Origin: a virus
Taxonomy: Duplodnaviria; Caudoviricetes
IMG/VR virus record: IMGVR_UViG_3300025154_000298
Location: 1-31,835 of that record
Direction: 5' to 3' (one strand)
Length of the DNA: 31,835 nt
In this document: positions 14,726-31,835 of the stretch, piece after piece
Layout of the letters: every line of letters begins with the position of its first letter
Position numbering within the stretch: position 1 is the stretch's first letter
Program-made: the position numbers and the translations under genes
The notes under the pieces: model-generated
Seen by the model: only the letters and a program-made list of their open reading frames with translations
The model's database searches: none
What the model was told of the DNA's origin: nothing

Positions 14726-15248
14726 ATCAGGGGTGGCGTTTCACTGCCACCACGACAGGCTAGTCGAGTTTGTGACAAACTACGACGAGCGCGTGGCGTA
14801 CATCAAGCAGGAGAAGCCCCCAGCAGAGCGGCCTCTTCGTCTCCGACTCTTCCAGATGGTCCCGCCTGAGCGCCTATCCGCTGGATTGGCGGAAGCGGTG
14901 AACGAGAGCACCCGGCTGCGGGAGGAGAGCGACCGGCTGCGGGCCGAGGGCAACCGGCTGTGGGAGGAGGGCCACCGGCTGTGGGCCGAGGCCAGCCGGC
15001 TGTGGACCGAGAGCACCCGGCTGTGGGCCGAGGGCACCCGGCTGTGGGAGGAGGGCCACCGGCTGTGGGCCGAGAGCACCCGGCTGTGGACCGAGAGCAC
15101 CCGGCTGTGGGCCGAGAGCACCCGGCTGGGAGTTGAGAACATCGCACAGCATATGCCTGAGTTGCTGGCGCTGCACGCCGAACTCTGTCCAGAATGTCCC
15201 TGGAATGGACAGACGATCTTCGGGAGAGAGGAGAACCCCGATGGCTAA
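14718..15248 (+). CDS. hypothetical protein with heptad (ExxRLWx) coiled-coil repeats
   Basis: FHCHHD N-terminus, LHAELCPECPWNG C-terminus, about 10.5 heptads between them. Confidence 0.8.
   Translation: MAKSGVAFHCHHDRLVEFVTNYDERVAYIKQEKPPAERPLRLRLFQMVPPERLSAGLAEAVNESTRLREESDRLRAEGNRLWEEGHRLWAEASRLWTESTRLWAEGTRLWEEGHRLWAESTRLWTESTRLWAESTRLGVENIAQHMPELLALHAELCPECPWNGQTIFGREENPDG
14904..15128 (+). repeat. 21-nt coding tandem repeat (~10.7 copies)
   Basis: Consensus GAGAGCACCCGGCTGTGGGCC. Confidence 0.95.
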
Positions 15249-15909: not shown

Positions 15910-15962
15910 ACGAGCGGAGCCGAGCGGATAACCCGCCCCAAGAGTAGACGGAGGAAACTTTT

Positions 15963-16184
15963 ATGATTGATCCCACGATTCAGCGGGAGACCCGCAGCAG
16001 CATCGAGATCGACATGAACGCCAAGGGCGACTGGGCGCTCAAGGCCAAGCTGTACTTTGATGACACTGACTCGTCAGGGCACATGCGGGCCCAGCGGACG
16101 CTGGAAGCCATAGACGCGTGGTTCCAGCAACGATTTAGGAACAGCCCGGTTGTGGTGCGCACCCAAACGATTGTGGGGTCGTGA
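15963..16184 (+). CDS. hypothetical protein
   Basis: GGAGG SD; SSIEIDMNAKGDWALKAKLY. Confidence 0.75.
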   Translation: MIDPTIQRETRSSIEIDMNAKGDWALKAKLYFDDTDSSGHMRAQRTLEAIDAWFQQRFRNSPVVVRTQTIVGS

Positions 16185-16592: not shown

Positions 16593-17972
16593 GTGAGAAC
16601 GAGGCCGAAGATGAATGACGCACGTGAGCAGAACGCGGCCGAATATGCCCGCCGGGAGGCGATCTACGCCACGGCGAAAGCCTCAGAGTGCTCCGTCTGC
16701 CTCCGCCAGATGGGGGTGCGTCTTGAGAACGGGCAGCCGGTCGTCCGGTGCCAAACGGATCCCACGCACGAGGGCTACCGTCGGCTGCGGAGCCTGACGC
16801 AATTGGCCAAGGATGGAATGTATATCCCTTATGTGAGTGAGAGAGTGCAACGAAAGAAGGAGGAGCAATTGGAAGAGCAAATCCAGGATCCCGAAACCAG
16901 GGCCTTGGCAGTTTACGGTGGAGACCGTCAGATGATGACGACAGAGATTGCCCAAAAAATCGTGGCTCATATCTGGCCAGGAGCGCCAGCCGATGCGGTG
17001 GCAAGGGCAGTAATGATCTGTGCGCAAAACAACCTCAACCCATTGATGAAGCATCTATACATAATCCACTACCCCAGCAAAAGCGGAGGGCCCGGGCGGG
17101 ATGAGTGCGTCCTGGGGATAGACGGGTACCGCATAATCGCTCGCAGGCGTAGCCCGTTTAGTTATCGGGAAGGGCCACGGGCCATGACTGCGGAAGAGAT
17201 TGAGGCCAGAGGTGAAGATCCAAAACAGATGATAGGGTCTGTCGTCGTGCTGGAAACTCCGGGGGGTGGCCGATTCCCTGGCTATGGTTTTTGGAGGCGC
17301 GATCAAGAACCCCTCGGAATTGATAAGGGCAATACGAAGGGTAATATGGCCGATAAGCGGGCAGAAGCGGCGGCCTTCAGGCGTATTATGCCCGACAACG
17401 AACTGCCGGTACCGGTTGCGCTTGACGTGGCGTTTTCCGACATCTCTGACTACGTAGCCATCGCTGCTCCCAGCACTGTGAACACCGAAACCGGCGAGAT
17501 AAGTGAGGACCTGGGGCGGTGTCCTGTGCACAACAAGGCCTTCAAGCAGGGGCAGTACGGCCCCTACTGTGGCAAGAAGCTGGCAGACGGGACCTGGTGC
17601 AAGGAAAAGCCAATGGCCCAAGCTAAGGCTCCTGCCCGCCCCGTGCCGACCGAGGTTGTGACCCCGCCGGCCACCAGGCCAACCGTCACCCCGACCGCAC
17701 AACCCGTCCAGGCTTCACCAGAAGGGCAAGGCGTGCCCGCAAGCCCCGCGGACGCCCTGGGGGAAGCCTTTGGCCCGCAGGCTGAGGCTGAGACAGCACC
17801 GCCAAGTAGACCGGCAGTAGAGATGACGCCAACGGAGTTCTGGCGGGCAGCCAAACAGCTTGGGTTCGCCAACGCGAAGGCGGTATGCGACGCTCTCCAG
17901 GTGGCCGATGCCGGGGTTATCCTGCCGGAGATTGGCTATCGGGAAGCCCTCAAGAAGTTGCAGCAAAACTAG
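16593..17972 (+). CDS. bet: Bet/RecT family single-strand annealing protein with Zn motifs (start may be 16611)
   Basis: LNPLMKHLYII, LGIDGYRIIARR, MADKRAEAAAFRR, and the VNTETGEI tail motif. Confidence 0.8.
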   Translation: MRTRPKMNDAREQNAAEYARREAIYATAKASECSVCLRQMGVRLENGQPVVRCQTDPTHEGYRRLRSLTQLAKDGMYIPYVSERVQRKKEEQLEEQIQDPETRALAVYGGDRQMMTTEIAQKIVAHIWPGAPADAVARAVMICAQNNLNPLMKHLYIIHYPSKSGGPGRDECVLGIDGYRIIARRRSPFSYREGPRAMTAEEIEARGEDPKQMIGSVVVLETPGGGRFPGYGFWRRDQEPLGIDKGNTKGNMADKRAEAAAFRRIMPDNELPVPVALDVAFSDISDYVAIAAPSTVNTETGEISEDLGRCPVHNKAFKQGQYGPYCGKKLADGTWCKEKPMAQAKAPARPVPTEVVTPPATRPTVTPTAQPVQASPEGQGVPASPADALGEAFGPQAEAETAPPSRPAVEMTPTEFWRAAKQLGFANAKAVCDALQVADAGVILPEIGYREALKKLQQN

Positions 17973-18714: not shown

Positions 18715-19296
18715 ATGGAGACAAAAAACTACGTCGTGGAGCTAACGCTGCTAGAGCCATTGCTCGGGACGGTTCCCAAGGACAAGGACATCTACGCCAC
18801 CTACATCGCGACCAAAAAGGAGAGCGCGAGTATTGGTGAGGTGGACACAGTGCCGGAGAACGACCTGGAAGAGAAGGGATGGACCGGCTTTCACACGGAT
18901 GATACAGGAATTTTCCTGTATGACTACCAGATCAAAGGCTTCCTGAAAGAAGCCGGCAACGTGCTCAAGGCCGAGCTCAAGGTCAAAAACCTCCGGTCGA
19001 AGCTGGACGACTACGTGTTTGTCTTCCCGCGCCGTATCCAGCTGGCGGAGAAGCCGGACGGGGTAATAGAGCGCCCGTTGAGAGCGATGACGGCGCAGGG
19101 GCCTCGTGTCACCCTGGCCCGCTCGGACACGGTGAATGCTGGGCGGGTGATCCGGTTCGAGGTCAGGACACTGGCTCATTCAGAGATCACCGAGGCACTC
19201 CTGGTGGCGCTCTTGGACTATGGGGCGCTCAAGGGGTTGGGCCAATTTCGGAACGGCAGCTACGGACGCGTCTCCTACACACTATCGCGTATGTAG
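18715..19296 (+). CDS. stand-alone Cas7/RAMP-like protein
   Basis: N-terminal beta strand VELTLLEPLLG, YQIKGFLKEA helix (RAMP sslKGxlR-like), and C-terminal G-rich loop GLGQFRNGSYGRV; AAGGAGG SD. Confidence 0.7.
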   Translation: METKNYVVELTLLEPLLGTVPKDKDIYATYIATKKESASIGEVDTVPENDLEEKGWTGFHTDDTGIFLYDYQIKGFLKEAGNVLKAELKVKNLRSKLDDYVFVFPRRIQLAEKPDGVIERPLRAMTAQGPRVTLARSDTVNAGRVIRFEVRTLAHSEITEALLVALLDYGALKGLGQFRNGSYGRVSYTLSRM

Positions 19297-19298
19297 AC

Positions 19299-19717
19299 GC
19301 AGCGCGAGGGCCTGGCTTTGGCACAGCAGAGCGTGGCAATGGCAAAGCGCAGCAGAGCTACGGCACTGCATGGCCTCGCGGCGAAGGCACCGCCCGGCGA
19401 AGCGCAGCTACGGCACGGCGATGCACCGCCCGGCGAAGGCAAAGCCCAGCAAAGCGCCGCGCGGCGCCGGCAAAGCACGGCAAAGCATTGCGGCGACAAC
19501 GGCAACGGCTGTGCCCGGCGAGGCGAAGCGCGGCAACGGCACAGCAGAGCAAGGCAGGGCGCAGCTACGGCTTGGCGCGGCGAGGCACGGCACGGCACAG
19601 GCAATGCGCGGCGTTGGCACAGCAGGGCTAGGCGAAGCGCAGCTACGGCACGGCAATGCAACGGCAGGGCTAGGCAGCGCGTCGCTACGGCACAGGCAAT
19701 GCGCGACGTGGCACGGC
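19299..19717 (+). repeat. non-coding NGC-NN pentamer array (putative guide RNA locus)
   Basis: Roughly 75-80 near-consecutive (G/A/T/C)GC-NN units, mostly GGC/AGC, with a 6-nt unit closing each block; starts 3 nt after the RAMP stop. Confidence 0.85.
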
Positions 19718-19724
19718 TAATGAT

Positions 19725-19765
19725 GTGGGCGGGCCTGGGCCGGTGACAGGCCCCCCGCAAAAAAA
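19725..19765. terminator. GC-rich hairpin closing the array (A7 on + strand = U-tract on - strand)
   Basis: GTGGGcGGGCCTG-loop-CAGGCCCcCCGC followed by AAAAAAA. Confidence 0.5.
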
Positions 19766-20208: not shown

Positions 20209-20238
20209 TTGACAAATGATTTGCGGGCGTGATATATT
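20209..20238 (+). promoter_or_regulatory. sigma70-type promoter
   Basis: TTGACA-18-TATATT with TG extension; ATG 10 nt after the -10. Confidence 0.6.
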
Positions 20239-26444: not shown

Positions 26445-27183
26445 CGCCGTCGTTATTTTCCTTGCGCTGGGCCTTAGCGTTGTGCTGGATGCCGTGGTGC
26501 CCTTCCCTACAACCGCCCCAGGGCCTCCCACAGGGGCCTGGGTGGTAGGCAAGGGGCAGCAGCATAGTAACGGGTATCCGCCCGGCCCCAATTCCGGGTC
26601 GTCTAGCGGTAGGATGCGATTCTCTGAAAATCGAGACGTAGGTTCGAGTCCTACCCCGGAAACCAACATGATCGAGGGTCGGCTAGAGGTAGGCCAGCAG
26701 GCTTTGAACCTGTCAACGGAGGTTCGAGTCCTCCCCCTCGAACCAATTGCAGCGCGTGGGGGCCATAACGGGCTGGATCTGCTGGTTGGCCAATCGGCGA
26801 GGATGGATGTAAACAATGGAATGGAGCGACGTACTCTGGATGCTGATGCTGGTGTTGTTCGCCGTATACGGCAAGGCGCGGACATTGTGACGGCGGTGAC
26901 GGGGACGCTCACTTATTACCATCCGGATCTCGCGGGCAACGTCATGCGCGATGGGATAACCACCTACGAGCCGACCATGAGCGGGGTGGCCGCGGCGACC
27001 TCCTGGCCGCTGGGGACCTGGCTAGAGGTGCGTGGGCCGACGGGGAGGTCCCTGCTGCTGGTGATCTCCGATACCGGCAAGTTAGAACCTGGCGCTCTGG
27101 ACGTGCCAGAGGCCGTCTTCGTGGTGCTTGCAGGCAGCCTTGCCCCTGGGCGGGTGCCGGTGAGGGTAAGGGTAATAGATTGA
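26434..27183 (+). CDS. RlpA-like double-psi beta-barrel (lytic transglycosylase-like) protein; start either 26434 (with signal/TM) or GTG 26887
   Basis: TYYH..G..MRDG..AAA..WPLGTWLEV...VISDTG...LDV..F motif at 26887-27183; the frame is open back to a hydrophobic N-terminus. Confidence 0.65.
   Translation: MRVSAVVIFLALGLSVVLDAVVPFPTTAPGPPTGAWVVGKGQQHSNGYPPGPNSGSSSGRMRFSENRDVGSSPTPETNMIEGRLEVGQQALNLSTEVRVLPLEPIAARGGHNGLDLLVGQSARMDVNNGMERRTLDADAGVVRRIRQGADIVTAVTGTLTYYHPDLAGNVMRDGITTYEPTMSGVAAATSWPLGTWLEVRGPTGRSLLLVISDTGKLEPGALDVPEAVFVVLAGSLAPGRVPVRVRVID
26592..26665 (+). tRNA. tRNA-Gln(CTG)
   Basis: Acceptor TTCCGGG/CCCGGAA, anticodon arm CGATT-CTCTGAA-AATCG, T arm GTAGG-TTCGAGT-CCTAC, encoded CCA. 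Confidence 0.93.
26672..26745 (+). tRNA. tRNA-Gln(TTG)
   Basis: Acceptor TCGAGGG/CCCTCGA, anticodon arm GCAGG-CTTTGAA-CCTGT, T arm GGAGG-TTCGAGT-CCTCC, encoded CCA. Confidence 0.93.
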
Positions 27184-28218: not shown

Positions 28219-29299
28219 AGGGGGACTACGGGGAACGGGGCTACGGGGAGCTCCGTTCCCGTATTTTGGAGGGAAGCGCACCATCGCGGCAGCGGTGTGG
28301 GACCGCCTGGGGGACGTGGCCAGCTACATTGAACCGTTTGCGGGGTCGGCGGCGGTGCTGCTGGCCAGGCCGAACGCGCATTGCTGGTGGGACCGGACCG
28401 AGACGATAAATGATATGGATGGAATGGTCTCGAATTTTTGGCGGGCGCTACAGGCGGACCCGGACGCGGTGGCGAAGTGGGCAGACCACCCCGTTCTGGA
28501 AAACTGCTTGCACGCTCGCCACGCGTGGCTGGTAAGCCAAAAGGCATCACTCCGAGAGCGCCTGGAGGGGGATCCGGACTACTACGATGCCAAAATAGCC
28601 GGGTGGTGGTGTTGGGGCATGTGCTGTTGGATCGGGGGCGGGTTCTGTTCGGGACGAGGCCCCTGGCACGCCGTGGACGGCGAGTTGGTGAAAGCTGGCG
28701 ACGATGGCCAGGGCGTGAATCGGAAGCTAGTGCACCTGGGGGATGACGGCCAGGGCGTGAATCGGACGCGAGTTCACCTGGGGGATGACGGCCAGGGCGT
28801 GAATCGGAAGCTAGTTCACCTGGGGGATGACGGCCGGGGTTTATGCGAAGCAGTGCATGAGGGCATCCTGGCGTGGATGCGGAGGCTAGCAGATCGGTTG
28901 CGTAGGGTGAGGGTATGTTCGGGCGATTGGGCCAGGGTATGTACGCCGGTGGCCTGCCGGGAGGAAACCGGCTTGGTGGGGGTATTTCTGGACCCGCCCT
29001 ATTCGGCTGAATCGGGCCGGGACAACGAGATCTACGCAGTGGAAAATCTGACAGTCGCGCACGAGGTGCGGGCCTGGGCGATAGCTCACGGGGAGGACCC
29101 GCGGTATCGGATCGCGTTTTGCGGGTATGCCGGAGAGCATGATATGCCGGACTCGTGGGAGGTGCTGGCGTGGAAAGCGGTTGGCGGATATGGCAATCAG
29201 GGCAACGGTGCCGGCAGGGAGAATAGCGCTCGCGAGGTTGTCTGGTTCAATAAATCATGTCTCAAGCCGGAGCGGGTGCGGCAGTTGGATCTGCTGTGA
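28208..29299 (+). CDS. DNA adenine methyltransferase (D12/Dam-like)
   Basis: PFPYFGGK, EPFAGSAAV, ETIND, FLDPPY. Confidence 0.9.
   Translation: MWREGGLRGTGLRGAPFPYFGGKRTIAAAVWDRLGDVASYIEPFAGSAAVLLARPNAHCWWDRTETINDMDGMVSNFWRALQADPDAVAKWADHPVLENCLHARHAWLVSQKASLRERLEGDPDYYDAKIAGWWCWGMCCWIGGGFCSGRGPWHAVDGELVKAGDDGQGVNRKLVHLGDDGQGVNRTRVHLGDDGQGVNRKLVHLGDDGRGLCEAVHEGILAWMRRLADRLRRVRVCSGDWARVCTPVACREETGLVGVFLDPPYSAESGRDNEIYAVENLTVAHEVRAWAIAHGEDPRYRIAFCGYAGEHDMPDSWEVLAWKAVGGYGNQGNGAGRENSAREVVWFNKSCLKPERVRQLDLL
28697..28840 (+). repeat. 42-nt coding tandem repeat (3.4 copies, GDDGQGVNRKLVHL)
   Basis: Read directly from the sequence. Confidence 0.95.
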
Positions 29300-30640: not shown

Positions 30641-31275
30641 GACAATATCTCCCTCAGGCGGGCTTCCTGCCATGCTCGCTCGGCGTACCAGGCGGACTCG
30701 GCGGCGTACTCGGCGTACCAGGCGGACTCGGCGGCGTACTCGGCGGCAAACCAGGCGGACTCGGCGGCGGACTCGGCGGCGGACCAGGCGGACCTGGCGG
30801 CGGACTCGGCGGCGGACCAGGCGGACCTGGCGGCGGACTCGGCGGCAAACCAGGCGGACCTGGCGGCGGACTCGGCGGCGGACCAGGCGGACCTGGCGGC
30901 GGACTCGGCGGCGTCGAGTTCTTCCCTGCTGGCCTCGGCGGCGGCGAAGCGTCGGGCCACTGCGATAGCCTCCCGCGGTCGGCTGTCGTGAGGGCAGAGG
31001 GCCTCGAAAATCGGCAGCACATGCTCCGCGTAGTCGCAGGCCAGCACGCGGGCGAAACGGTCTCGCTCCTGTTCTTGTTCCGCCGGTACGGCCCGCAACG
31101 CCCAGAGCGCGTCATCCAGGCCGTTCAGGTCCAGGATTTGCAGGAGCGTGATGGGGCGGTCGTGGCTGTAGTGTGGCCCCAGGGCCGAGCGCAGGTGGGG
31201 GTACCGATTAGTGCACGCGTCGTGCTGCCGGAGCAGCCGGAGCGTGGTGGTTAGGGTCGTCATGTTGTAGCTCAC
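30637..31275 (-). CDS. phage protein with Imm5-like helical segment and Ala-rich 11-aa repeats
   Basis: NGLDDALWAL, ACDYAEHVLPIFE..DSRPREAIAVARRF, AAESAARSAW repeats; AAGGAG SD. Confidence 0.8.
   Translation of the reverse strand: MSYNMTTLTTTLRLLRQHDACTNRYPHLRSALGPHYSHDRPITLLQILDLNGLDDALWALRAVPAEQEQERDRFARVLACDYAEHVLPIFEALCPHDSRPREAIAVARRFAAAEASREELDAAESAARSAWSAAESAARSAWFAAESAARSAWSAAESAARSAWSAAESAAESAWFAAEYAAESAWYAEYAAESAWYAERAWQEARLREILS
30679..30912 (-). repeat. 33-nt coding tandem repeat (~7 copies)
   Basis: AAESAARSAW[S/F/Y] units. Confidence 0.95.
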
Positions 31276-31334: not shown

Positions 31335-31835
31335 TTAATCCAGCACCTTGAGTCTCTGCACCCGGACCTTCGCGTCCATCGTAGGTAGGCCGGCAAACAG
31401 AATATCCGCGCTGGCCACTTCCACCCGCAGGCAAATCAGATCGTGGCCAGGGGCGCACAGTCCCACCCATTCCGGCCGGTATCCGGGACGCAGCACATGC
31501 AGCCCCGCCGCGCACTGCTGATCGCTCACTACGGCCTCCGCCTCGACGACGGCTTCCTGCGCGTACGTCAGCACCGTACCCCCATCGAAATTGGGGGACT
31601 TCCGGGCAGGAGTCACCCATTTCCAAAAGATGTGGGTTTCTGAACCAGAGAGGTACGCTTGGCGGAAACATTCGTTCAATGCCTCGCTAGTCACGCCGTC
31701 TCCCAGGCGCACGCCGTTCCCCAGGCTCACGTTGTTCCCCAGGCGCACGCCGTCCCCCAGGCTCACGTTGTTCCCCAGGCTCACGTTGTTCCCCAGGCTC
31801 ACGCCGTCCCCCAGGCTCACGCCGTCTCCCAGGCT
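31335..31835 (-). CDS. hexapeptide-repeat (left-handed beta-helix-like) phage protein, 5'-truncated
   Basis: LGDGVS/LGNNVS repeats followed by a C-terminal domain (..QQCAAGLHV..KVRV); the frame runs off the window end. Confidence 0.8.
   Translation of the reverse strand, partial: SLGDGVSLGDGVSLGNNVSLGNNVSLGDGVRLGNNVSLGNGVRLGDGVTSEALNECFRQAYLSGSETHIFWKWVTPARKSPNFDGGTVLTYAQEAVVEAEAVVSDQQCAAGLHVLRPGYRPEWVGLCAPGHDLICLRVEVASADILFAGLPTMDAKVRVQRLKVLD
31692..31835 (-). repeat. 18-nt coding tandem repeat (>=8 copies)
   Basis: CTGGGRRACRRCGTGMGC units. Confidence 0.95.

Follow-up and report, generated by a model that had tools for sequence, protein, structure and literature searches.

We find that the pentamer array directly behind a small RAMP gene of this phage changes phase by one extra base at intervals, and we take these slips, with a probability of roughly 0.6, to be the borders of separate short VIPR guides, each block serving as one guide that silences the replication genes of competing phages. 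The window, meaning the whole stretch of DNA that was analysed, is an entire virus record of 31,835 nt; the same phage is represented by a complete genome of 59,695 nt (G001), and the sequencing runs containing the locus are labelled as groundwater metagenomes, with one labelled as soil. The idea of the slip as a guide border is already published under the name of "staggered vrRNA arrays", and the window array is a further example of this already described kind of VIPR system.

The vipr-like gene and its surroundings

The gene (18715..19296, plus strand) encodes a vipr-like protein of 193 amino acids with a RAMP/Cas7 fold and a glycine-rich loop (G-loop) near the C-terminus, and the array starts directly 3′ of its stop codon. 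The protein had no match in Pfam, in PHROG or among PDB sequences; its AlphaFold2 model has a pLDDT of 89.6, and in Foldseek that model comes closest to Cas7 subunits from complexes of types VII and III (E 2.6e-8). The G-loop aligns, over 39 columns only, with that of the SUSP1 protein ALH47069.1 (hhalign probability 82%), which we take to be the Vipr of SUSP1 from its locus layout and from the residue numbers in the structure paper. SUSP1 D177, which reads G1 according to the available part of 10.64898/2026.04.26.720927, aligns with a glutamine that is invariant in 120 clade sequences.

A scan of 49 ORFs, a subset of the whole set, found neither Cas1 nor Cas2 nor any other cas family. An Rfam scan of the window returned two tRNAs only, with no CRISPR or ribozyme match, and a ribozyme-spaced array was rejected on this ground. 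The neighbouring DUF7694 and ASCH genes and RecT do not recur within 3 kb of the gene in the other 231 loci, and no conserved nuclease gene was found near the related loci. The RAMP fold, the G-loop alignment and the lack of cas families and of a CRISPR array together fit a VIPR locus. The model is that of a putative stand-alone RAMP with an RRM core, a thumb and a G-loop; the locus, judged from its sequence, appears to be a minimal viral one without CRISPR array or Cas1/Cas2; and its units are adjacent pentamers whose N-GC-NN pattern falls into the YNNNG class, one of the pentamer consensuses published for VIPR (GGY/NN, NNNGG, YNNNG and NNNNG; 10.64898/2026.04.26.720920). Further non-canonical pentamers are reported in the available part of 10.64898/2026.10.21.760802.

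Several other features of the window were noted in passing. Two tRNA genes lie at 26592-26742, and a near-consensus sigma-70 promoter (11/12) at 20209-20238 stands before a small HTH gene, which in turn precedes primase-polymerase and AAA genes. In-frame tandem repeats occur within ORFs at 14903-15128 (21 nt), 28706-28839 (42 nt), 30681-30913 (33 nt) and 31691-31835 (18 nt); of these repeats, one falls within an adenine methylase and another belongs to a hexapeptide-repeat protein. The window carries a short patch of 16 differences from the complete genome (L001) at 15959-15980, the two being about 99.8% alike elsewhere. Contig L081 (1-409) has unrelated sequence upstream of window position 16624 and is identical onward, the break falling at the 5′ end of a RecT-like gene; this may be a recombinant variant or a misassembly.

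Architecture of the array

The array, a predicted vrRNA precursor, is parsed as 81 N-GC-NN units in 17-18 blocks (19298..19719, plus strand): 63 units have 5 nt, 16 have 6 nt, and there is one each of 4 and 7 nt. The periodicity is far outside what composition gives, with 60 GC pairs spaced 5 apart (mean 6.2 and maximum 16 in 500 shuffles) and 30 spaced 11 apart (maximum 14 in 500 shuffles). In agreement with the original observation that the pentamer phase slips by one base, the parse places 16 six-base units on the plus strand within 19303..19694, each followed by GGC: they start at 19303, 19314, 19335, 19356, 19406, 19432, 19463 and 19501 in the first half, and at 19532, 19563, 19594, 19610, 19641, 19657, 19683 and 19689 in the second. 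A probable 17th, at 19380 on the same strand, lies beside a small deletion. Thus G follows 16 of 16 six-base units, as against 27 of the 62 five-base units (Fisher p=2e-5).

Block lengths had been given as 5n+1, mostly 16, 21, 26 or 31 nt, for a total of about 15 guides. The lengths largely stand (31 nt five times; 26, 21, 16 and 11 nt twice each; 6 nt once), apart from a terminal block of 25 nt and a pair of irregular stretches (50 and 38 nt), so that not every length is 5n+1. The longer of the pair looks by eye like a damaged block of 24 nt plus a clean one of 26. The total is too low, as 17-18 blocks, holding 1-6 units each, are counted here. The same array is found unchanged in L001, L081 and two run contigs (X2 and X3) from which the window may itself derive, and no variant of it was found in run contigs across four runs.

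Predicted folding of the array is no better than that of shuffles (z=0.46), and a structured RNA across it was therefore rejected. A single GC-rich hairpin is predicted 3′ of the last block (19725..19757, plus strand) and is followed by an A run; it is possibly the 3′ end of the transcript, and a terminator search gave no call for it. Strong hairpins 3′ of the array are also present in 4 of 16 other arrays inspected by eye.

Internal duplications

The repeats originally described are all where they were said to be: GCGCAGCTACGGC at 19402, 19559 and 19637, its variants AGCTACGGC at 19356 and CGCTACGGC at 19683, and GCACCGCCCGGCGAAG at 19387 and 19423. By itself the threefold 13-mer is marginal against a null of shuffled units (p=0.03). 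The longest internal repeat, at 24 nt, was reached by none of 2000 such shuffles (mean 13.5), and the duplications of 24, 19 and 16 nt all exceed this null. The 24-nt segment (19396..19419, second copy 19631-19654, plus strand) includes the 13-mer and spans a junction, as does the second longest, so the duplicated segments do not coincide with blocks. The 19-nt direct repeats, which start at 19592 and 19687 (19592..19705, plus strand), flank 95 nt that are absent from contig L082; a true deletion and an assembly collapse may both account for this loss. The original prediction that the array diversifies by recombination rather than by Cas1-Cas2 acquisition fits these internal duplications, the L082 variant and the lack of Cas1/Cas2 hits.

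The proposal that AGC-TA-C-GGC is the junction signal fared worse. Of the 16 six-base units, no more than 4 close with AGC-TA-C, or 5 counting CGCTAC. In relatives TAC occurs in 27 of 2193 junction contexts, where AAA, AAT and AAC dominate, and AGCTAC was rejected as a processing signal for this reason. AGCTAC appears instead to be an incidental variant of the junction that was amplified by local duplication. Distant phages of the L014 group (about 40% protein identity) likewise carry the 13-mer at a single junction, which is probably a coincidence in a small sequence space.

Slips and junctions across the clade

We compared the window array with those of 234 fetched loci that carry a relative of the vipr-like gene. 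An array was called beside 188 of these, a count that includes redundant loci and a few calls that over-extend into the flanks; the score threshold was 30, and the highest score across 40 shuffled flanks was 9.7. The association of array and RAMP gene persists down to about 35% protein identity. There were no cultured phage or plasmid relatives, only four unannotated faecal phage records. In the L049 group, arrays can flank the gene on both sides, and the array of L137, in which internal duplication is extensive, exceeds 40 blocks.

The preference for a gain of exactly one base is general: with an equal penalty for every odd unit length, 58 cluster representatives hold 852 six-base units and between 37 and 72 each of 3, 4, 7, 8 and 9 bases. 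With scoring neutral at the base after the unit, G follows a six-base unit in 1792 of 1994 contexts, as against 2849 of 10169 internal ones. Blocks mostly have 5-7 units, and lengths of 26, 31 and 36 nt make up 582 of 784 unique slip-bounded blocks, which are 5n+1 by construction. The conserved junction is N-GC-AA-N followed by GG. Its AA is kept at only 4 of the 16 window junctions (AAT once, AAC three times), and the closest relatives of the window phage, such as L161 and L166, likewise have more varied junction triplets. Some blocks of the L289-L302 arrays contain an internal 4-nt unit, a slip of −1, that is conserved in many phages; some phase changes are therefore not borders.

Variation per site was measured in 219 pairs of near-identical blocks. 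The two NN positions change at 0.082 and 0.081 per site, the first base of the unit at 0.081 and the third at 0.040, and the G at 0.014, a value partly imposed by the parser. Variation had been expected to concentrate at NN; the constant G and the junctions do vary less, but the first base varies as NN does and is therefore as free. At the junction, NN of the last unit changes at 0.023 and the first G of the block at 0.014, and these low rates imply that junctions are under constraint: among near-identical blocks, last-unit NN differ at 10 of 438 sites, compared with 167 of 2042 internal ones (p=2e-6).

Exchange between related arrays is in part block by block. In a well-sampled group of phages, which we labelled gut phages because two records sharing its blocks are named human-gut metagenome, entire blocks occur in differing orders. 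Among 54 related arrays, in a test whose counts are not independent, 42% and 45% of the ends of shared segments lie within 8 nt of a junction, as against backgrounds of 26% and 25%, or about 1.7 times the background rate. More than half of the ends thus lie away from junctions, which counts against the slips as guide borders, as do the duplications of the window array that span junctions.

Candidate targets

For the window array itself, 13 stretches were searched against its own genome and 5.2 Mb of fetched loci, and none of them had a target; a search for competitor phages of its host returned only the phage itself. The best candidate comes from relatives: all 16 NN bases of an 8-unit block of L075 and L276 agree with L289, as do 6 of 7 skipped bases. 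The match follows the codons of a gene that PHROGs assign as a replication initiator of a related phage, each skip falling at the wobble position, and such a match (22/23) is expected 0.003 times over 248 long blocks, or about 0.02 times over six codes. A homologous initiator in L367, from a selected set of homologues, matches the same block at 23 of 23 contiguous bases. By eye, the match stops at both junctions of the block and is not extended by the neighbouring blocks.

Two further families point, as sequence matches more weakly than the initiator, to the replication machinery. A 9-unit family reads as E-M-S-x-E-Q-I-T, a DnaB motif, with its serine kept across the codons TCC, AGC and AGT. 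Its gapped hits in the viral collection number 38, where about 39 are expected by chance; four of them are DnaB helicases, including the two with the most skipped bases identical, and a host shared with the carriers of the guides is not established for these helicases. A family of 5-unit blocks agrees with a DnaC-like loader in 14 of 15 bases, though exact gapped hits were obtained for 36 of 47 five-unit blocks and for 33 in shuffles. We consider replication genes of related phages to be the likely targets.

Aggregate searches across the clade gave at most a weak signal. Under six codes the totals were level with shuffles in both 2.5 and 5.2 Mb; neither three-base codes nor those that skip 0, 1 or 2 bases showed an aggregate excess, and target steps of 2 and 4 gave no matches. 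An in-frame search found 7 of 279 blocks where 2.8 were expected (maximum 6), several of them from one family or in chosen genes, and 13 blocks with at least 8 hits compared with 6, an enrichment that is weak and partly due to gene choice. One widely searched block family had about 610 hits against an estimated 625 or so, with skip identity at chance, another had 4 hits against 3 in controls (401 genomes), and a contiguous 18-base decoded motif had a single hit in the viral collection, which is at chance level.

Several leads were dropped. A relaxed pattern of the DnaB family occurred in 49 of 401 genomes, with 8 matches to the reversed control, and its hits look generically codon-shaped; a stricter one occurred in 4 of 301, and the single hit inspected was not DnaB. 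Self-targeting inside the loci amounted to one chance-level match, and matches of A-rich blocks to the start regions of vipr genes were taken as compositional. If one mismatch is allowed, a 6-unit block family of the L052 group agrees with a conserved part of the vipr genes in 21 contexts. This is probably chance, since the skipped bases seldom agree and vipr genes are over-represented among the sequences.

Relation to described systems

As in the published staggered VIPR loci, a phage RAMP of about 20 kDa adjoins a pentamer array, one-base offsets are read as guide borders, a consensus with three free bases applies, and the targets predicted in the clade are phage genes whose wobble bases are skipped. 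The legend of fig. S18, the part of 10.64898/2026.04.26.720920 that bears on these arrays, describes guides taken from positions overlapping by 1 nt, and set against that legend alone the window array appears to have the same one-base guide offsets as a sequence pattern. For staggered arrays, the available text of the preprint states neither a junction consensus nor how block lengths are distributed, and it names no targets; its figs. S17 and S18 and data S4 may already display the block lengths and the free first base. The word "staggered" is absent from the available parts of 10.64898/2026.04.26.720927, 10.64898/2026.10.15.759431 and 10.64898/2026.10.21.760802, and a literature search returned no VIPR papers beyond these 2026 preprints.

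The type II systems of SUSP1 and a P. fulva prophage resemble the window locus in their G-loop and 5-nt unit, and their gapped target code fits the best match of the relatives. They differ in that the guides of SUSP1 have 9-16 GGY-NN units with a structured 3′ tail of their own and a vap1 gene (a vap accessory gene being typical of VIPR; 10.64898/2026.04.26.720920), whereas the window array has directly abutting blocks of 1-6 units, with no tail between them and with a free first base, and its protein a glutamine in place of D177. Class 1 CRISPR-Cas shares the RAMP fold and a guide array separated by a short conserved motif, but the window locus has no repeat-spacer array and interleaves constant bases within its guides.

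Probable guide borders and other readings of the slips

If the slips are guide borders, the extra base would break the 5-nt register of the protein filament, and we propose that this break makes each block act as one guide. By analogy with SUSP1, one protein subunit would bind each pentamer, the NN bases would pair with the first and second base of each three-base target step, and binding would repress transcription. The GC-AA-N-GG motif would mark the border, cleavage near it by a nuclease, perhaps Vipr itself, would release the guides, and these would direct the protein to the DNA of competing phages; new blocks would arise through recombination and point change. That six-base units bound guides, as originally suggested, is supported in part, by the clade-wide +1 slip, the GC-AA-N-GG motif, the ends of shared segments and those of the target match; what counts against one guide per block is that the blocks are short compared with the 9-16 units of characterised vrRNAs and have no 3′ tail of their own. 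Once the last unit is counted as fixed, such blocks keep some 8-12 informative bases, which is not enough to define a single site. The lack of a target match for the window array and the near-chance totals of the aggregate searches also count against it.

This shortness is one ground for the idea that the RNA stays uncut at the slips and works as long or multi-block pieces, in which a slip would reset or nucleate the filament and blocks may cooperate. The sole hairpin at the array end, the lack of a conserved nuclease gene nearby and the fact that RNA sequencing is said to confirm the ribozyme and single-guide types only, and not the staggered one (10.64898/2026.04.26.720920), all agree with it; however, the strong target match stops at both junctions and block order differs between related arrays, and we regard an uncut RNA as unlikely. 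Still less probable, in our view, is that the window array is a decayed or homogenised remnant whose slips are ancestral and whose targeting information has mostly been erased by slippage. Its excess of internal duplication, its blocks of 6, 11 and 16 nt plus two damaged ones, its few junctions with the clade's AA and its lack of a target would all suit decay, but the gene is intact and its model folds well, the G after the slip is kept at every junction, the close relatives L161 and L166 vary in the same way, and the sequences searched included no competitor phages of the host. We give very little credence to an ordinary tandem repeat or small coding region with slips as neutral indels: open frames of 142-166 aa do span the array and the repeat is GC-rich and slip-prone, yet nearly all slips are of +1 and come with a conserved motif, the array accompanies the RAMP gene even at low identity, and a period of 5 with gains and losses of 26, 31 or 36 nt would break any frame. 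The clade comparison largely excludes this possibility, and a protein-coding reading was rejected.

The first base of the unit

A further reading, which we hold to be doubtful, concerns the unit rather than its borders. Here the clade's unit would be GH-NNN and not GGY-NN, and a block would copy a continuous run of 15-24 bases from the gene of a competitor, with a pair of constant bases placed behind each codon; the third base would either pair or be a fossil of templated guide acquisition. The points that we count for this interleaved copy are the 23/23 initiator match, within which the first base of each guide unit equals the skipped target base, the DnaB-motif family and the loss of the aspartate that reads G1. 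Against it, synonymous constraint on the first base was not found clade-wide, skip identity was at chance in another block family, and the clade-wide test did not support the first base as the skipped target base as a rule. Codon-bias tests were set aside: dinucleotide bias confounds both the correlation of 0.51 with third-base preference and the stop depletion of 0.72-0.73 in the two wobble frames, and TGA shows no depletion.

Implications

With a clade that offers a junction motif, block turnover and candidate targets in replication genes, the cutting of such arrays and the gain of new guides become testable. If the third base pairs, these phages would have a recognition code of another kind, one that lends specificity to short guides; and if the first base does record the wobble position, it would be a clue to templated acquisition without Cas1-Cas2, or to a second code for very short guides.
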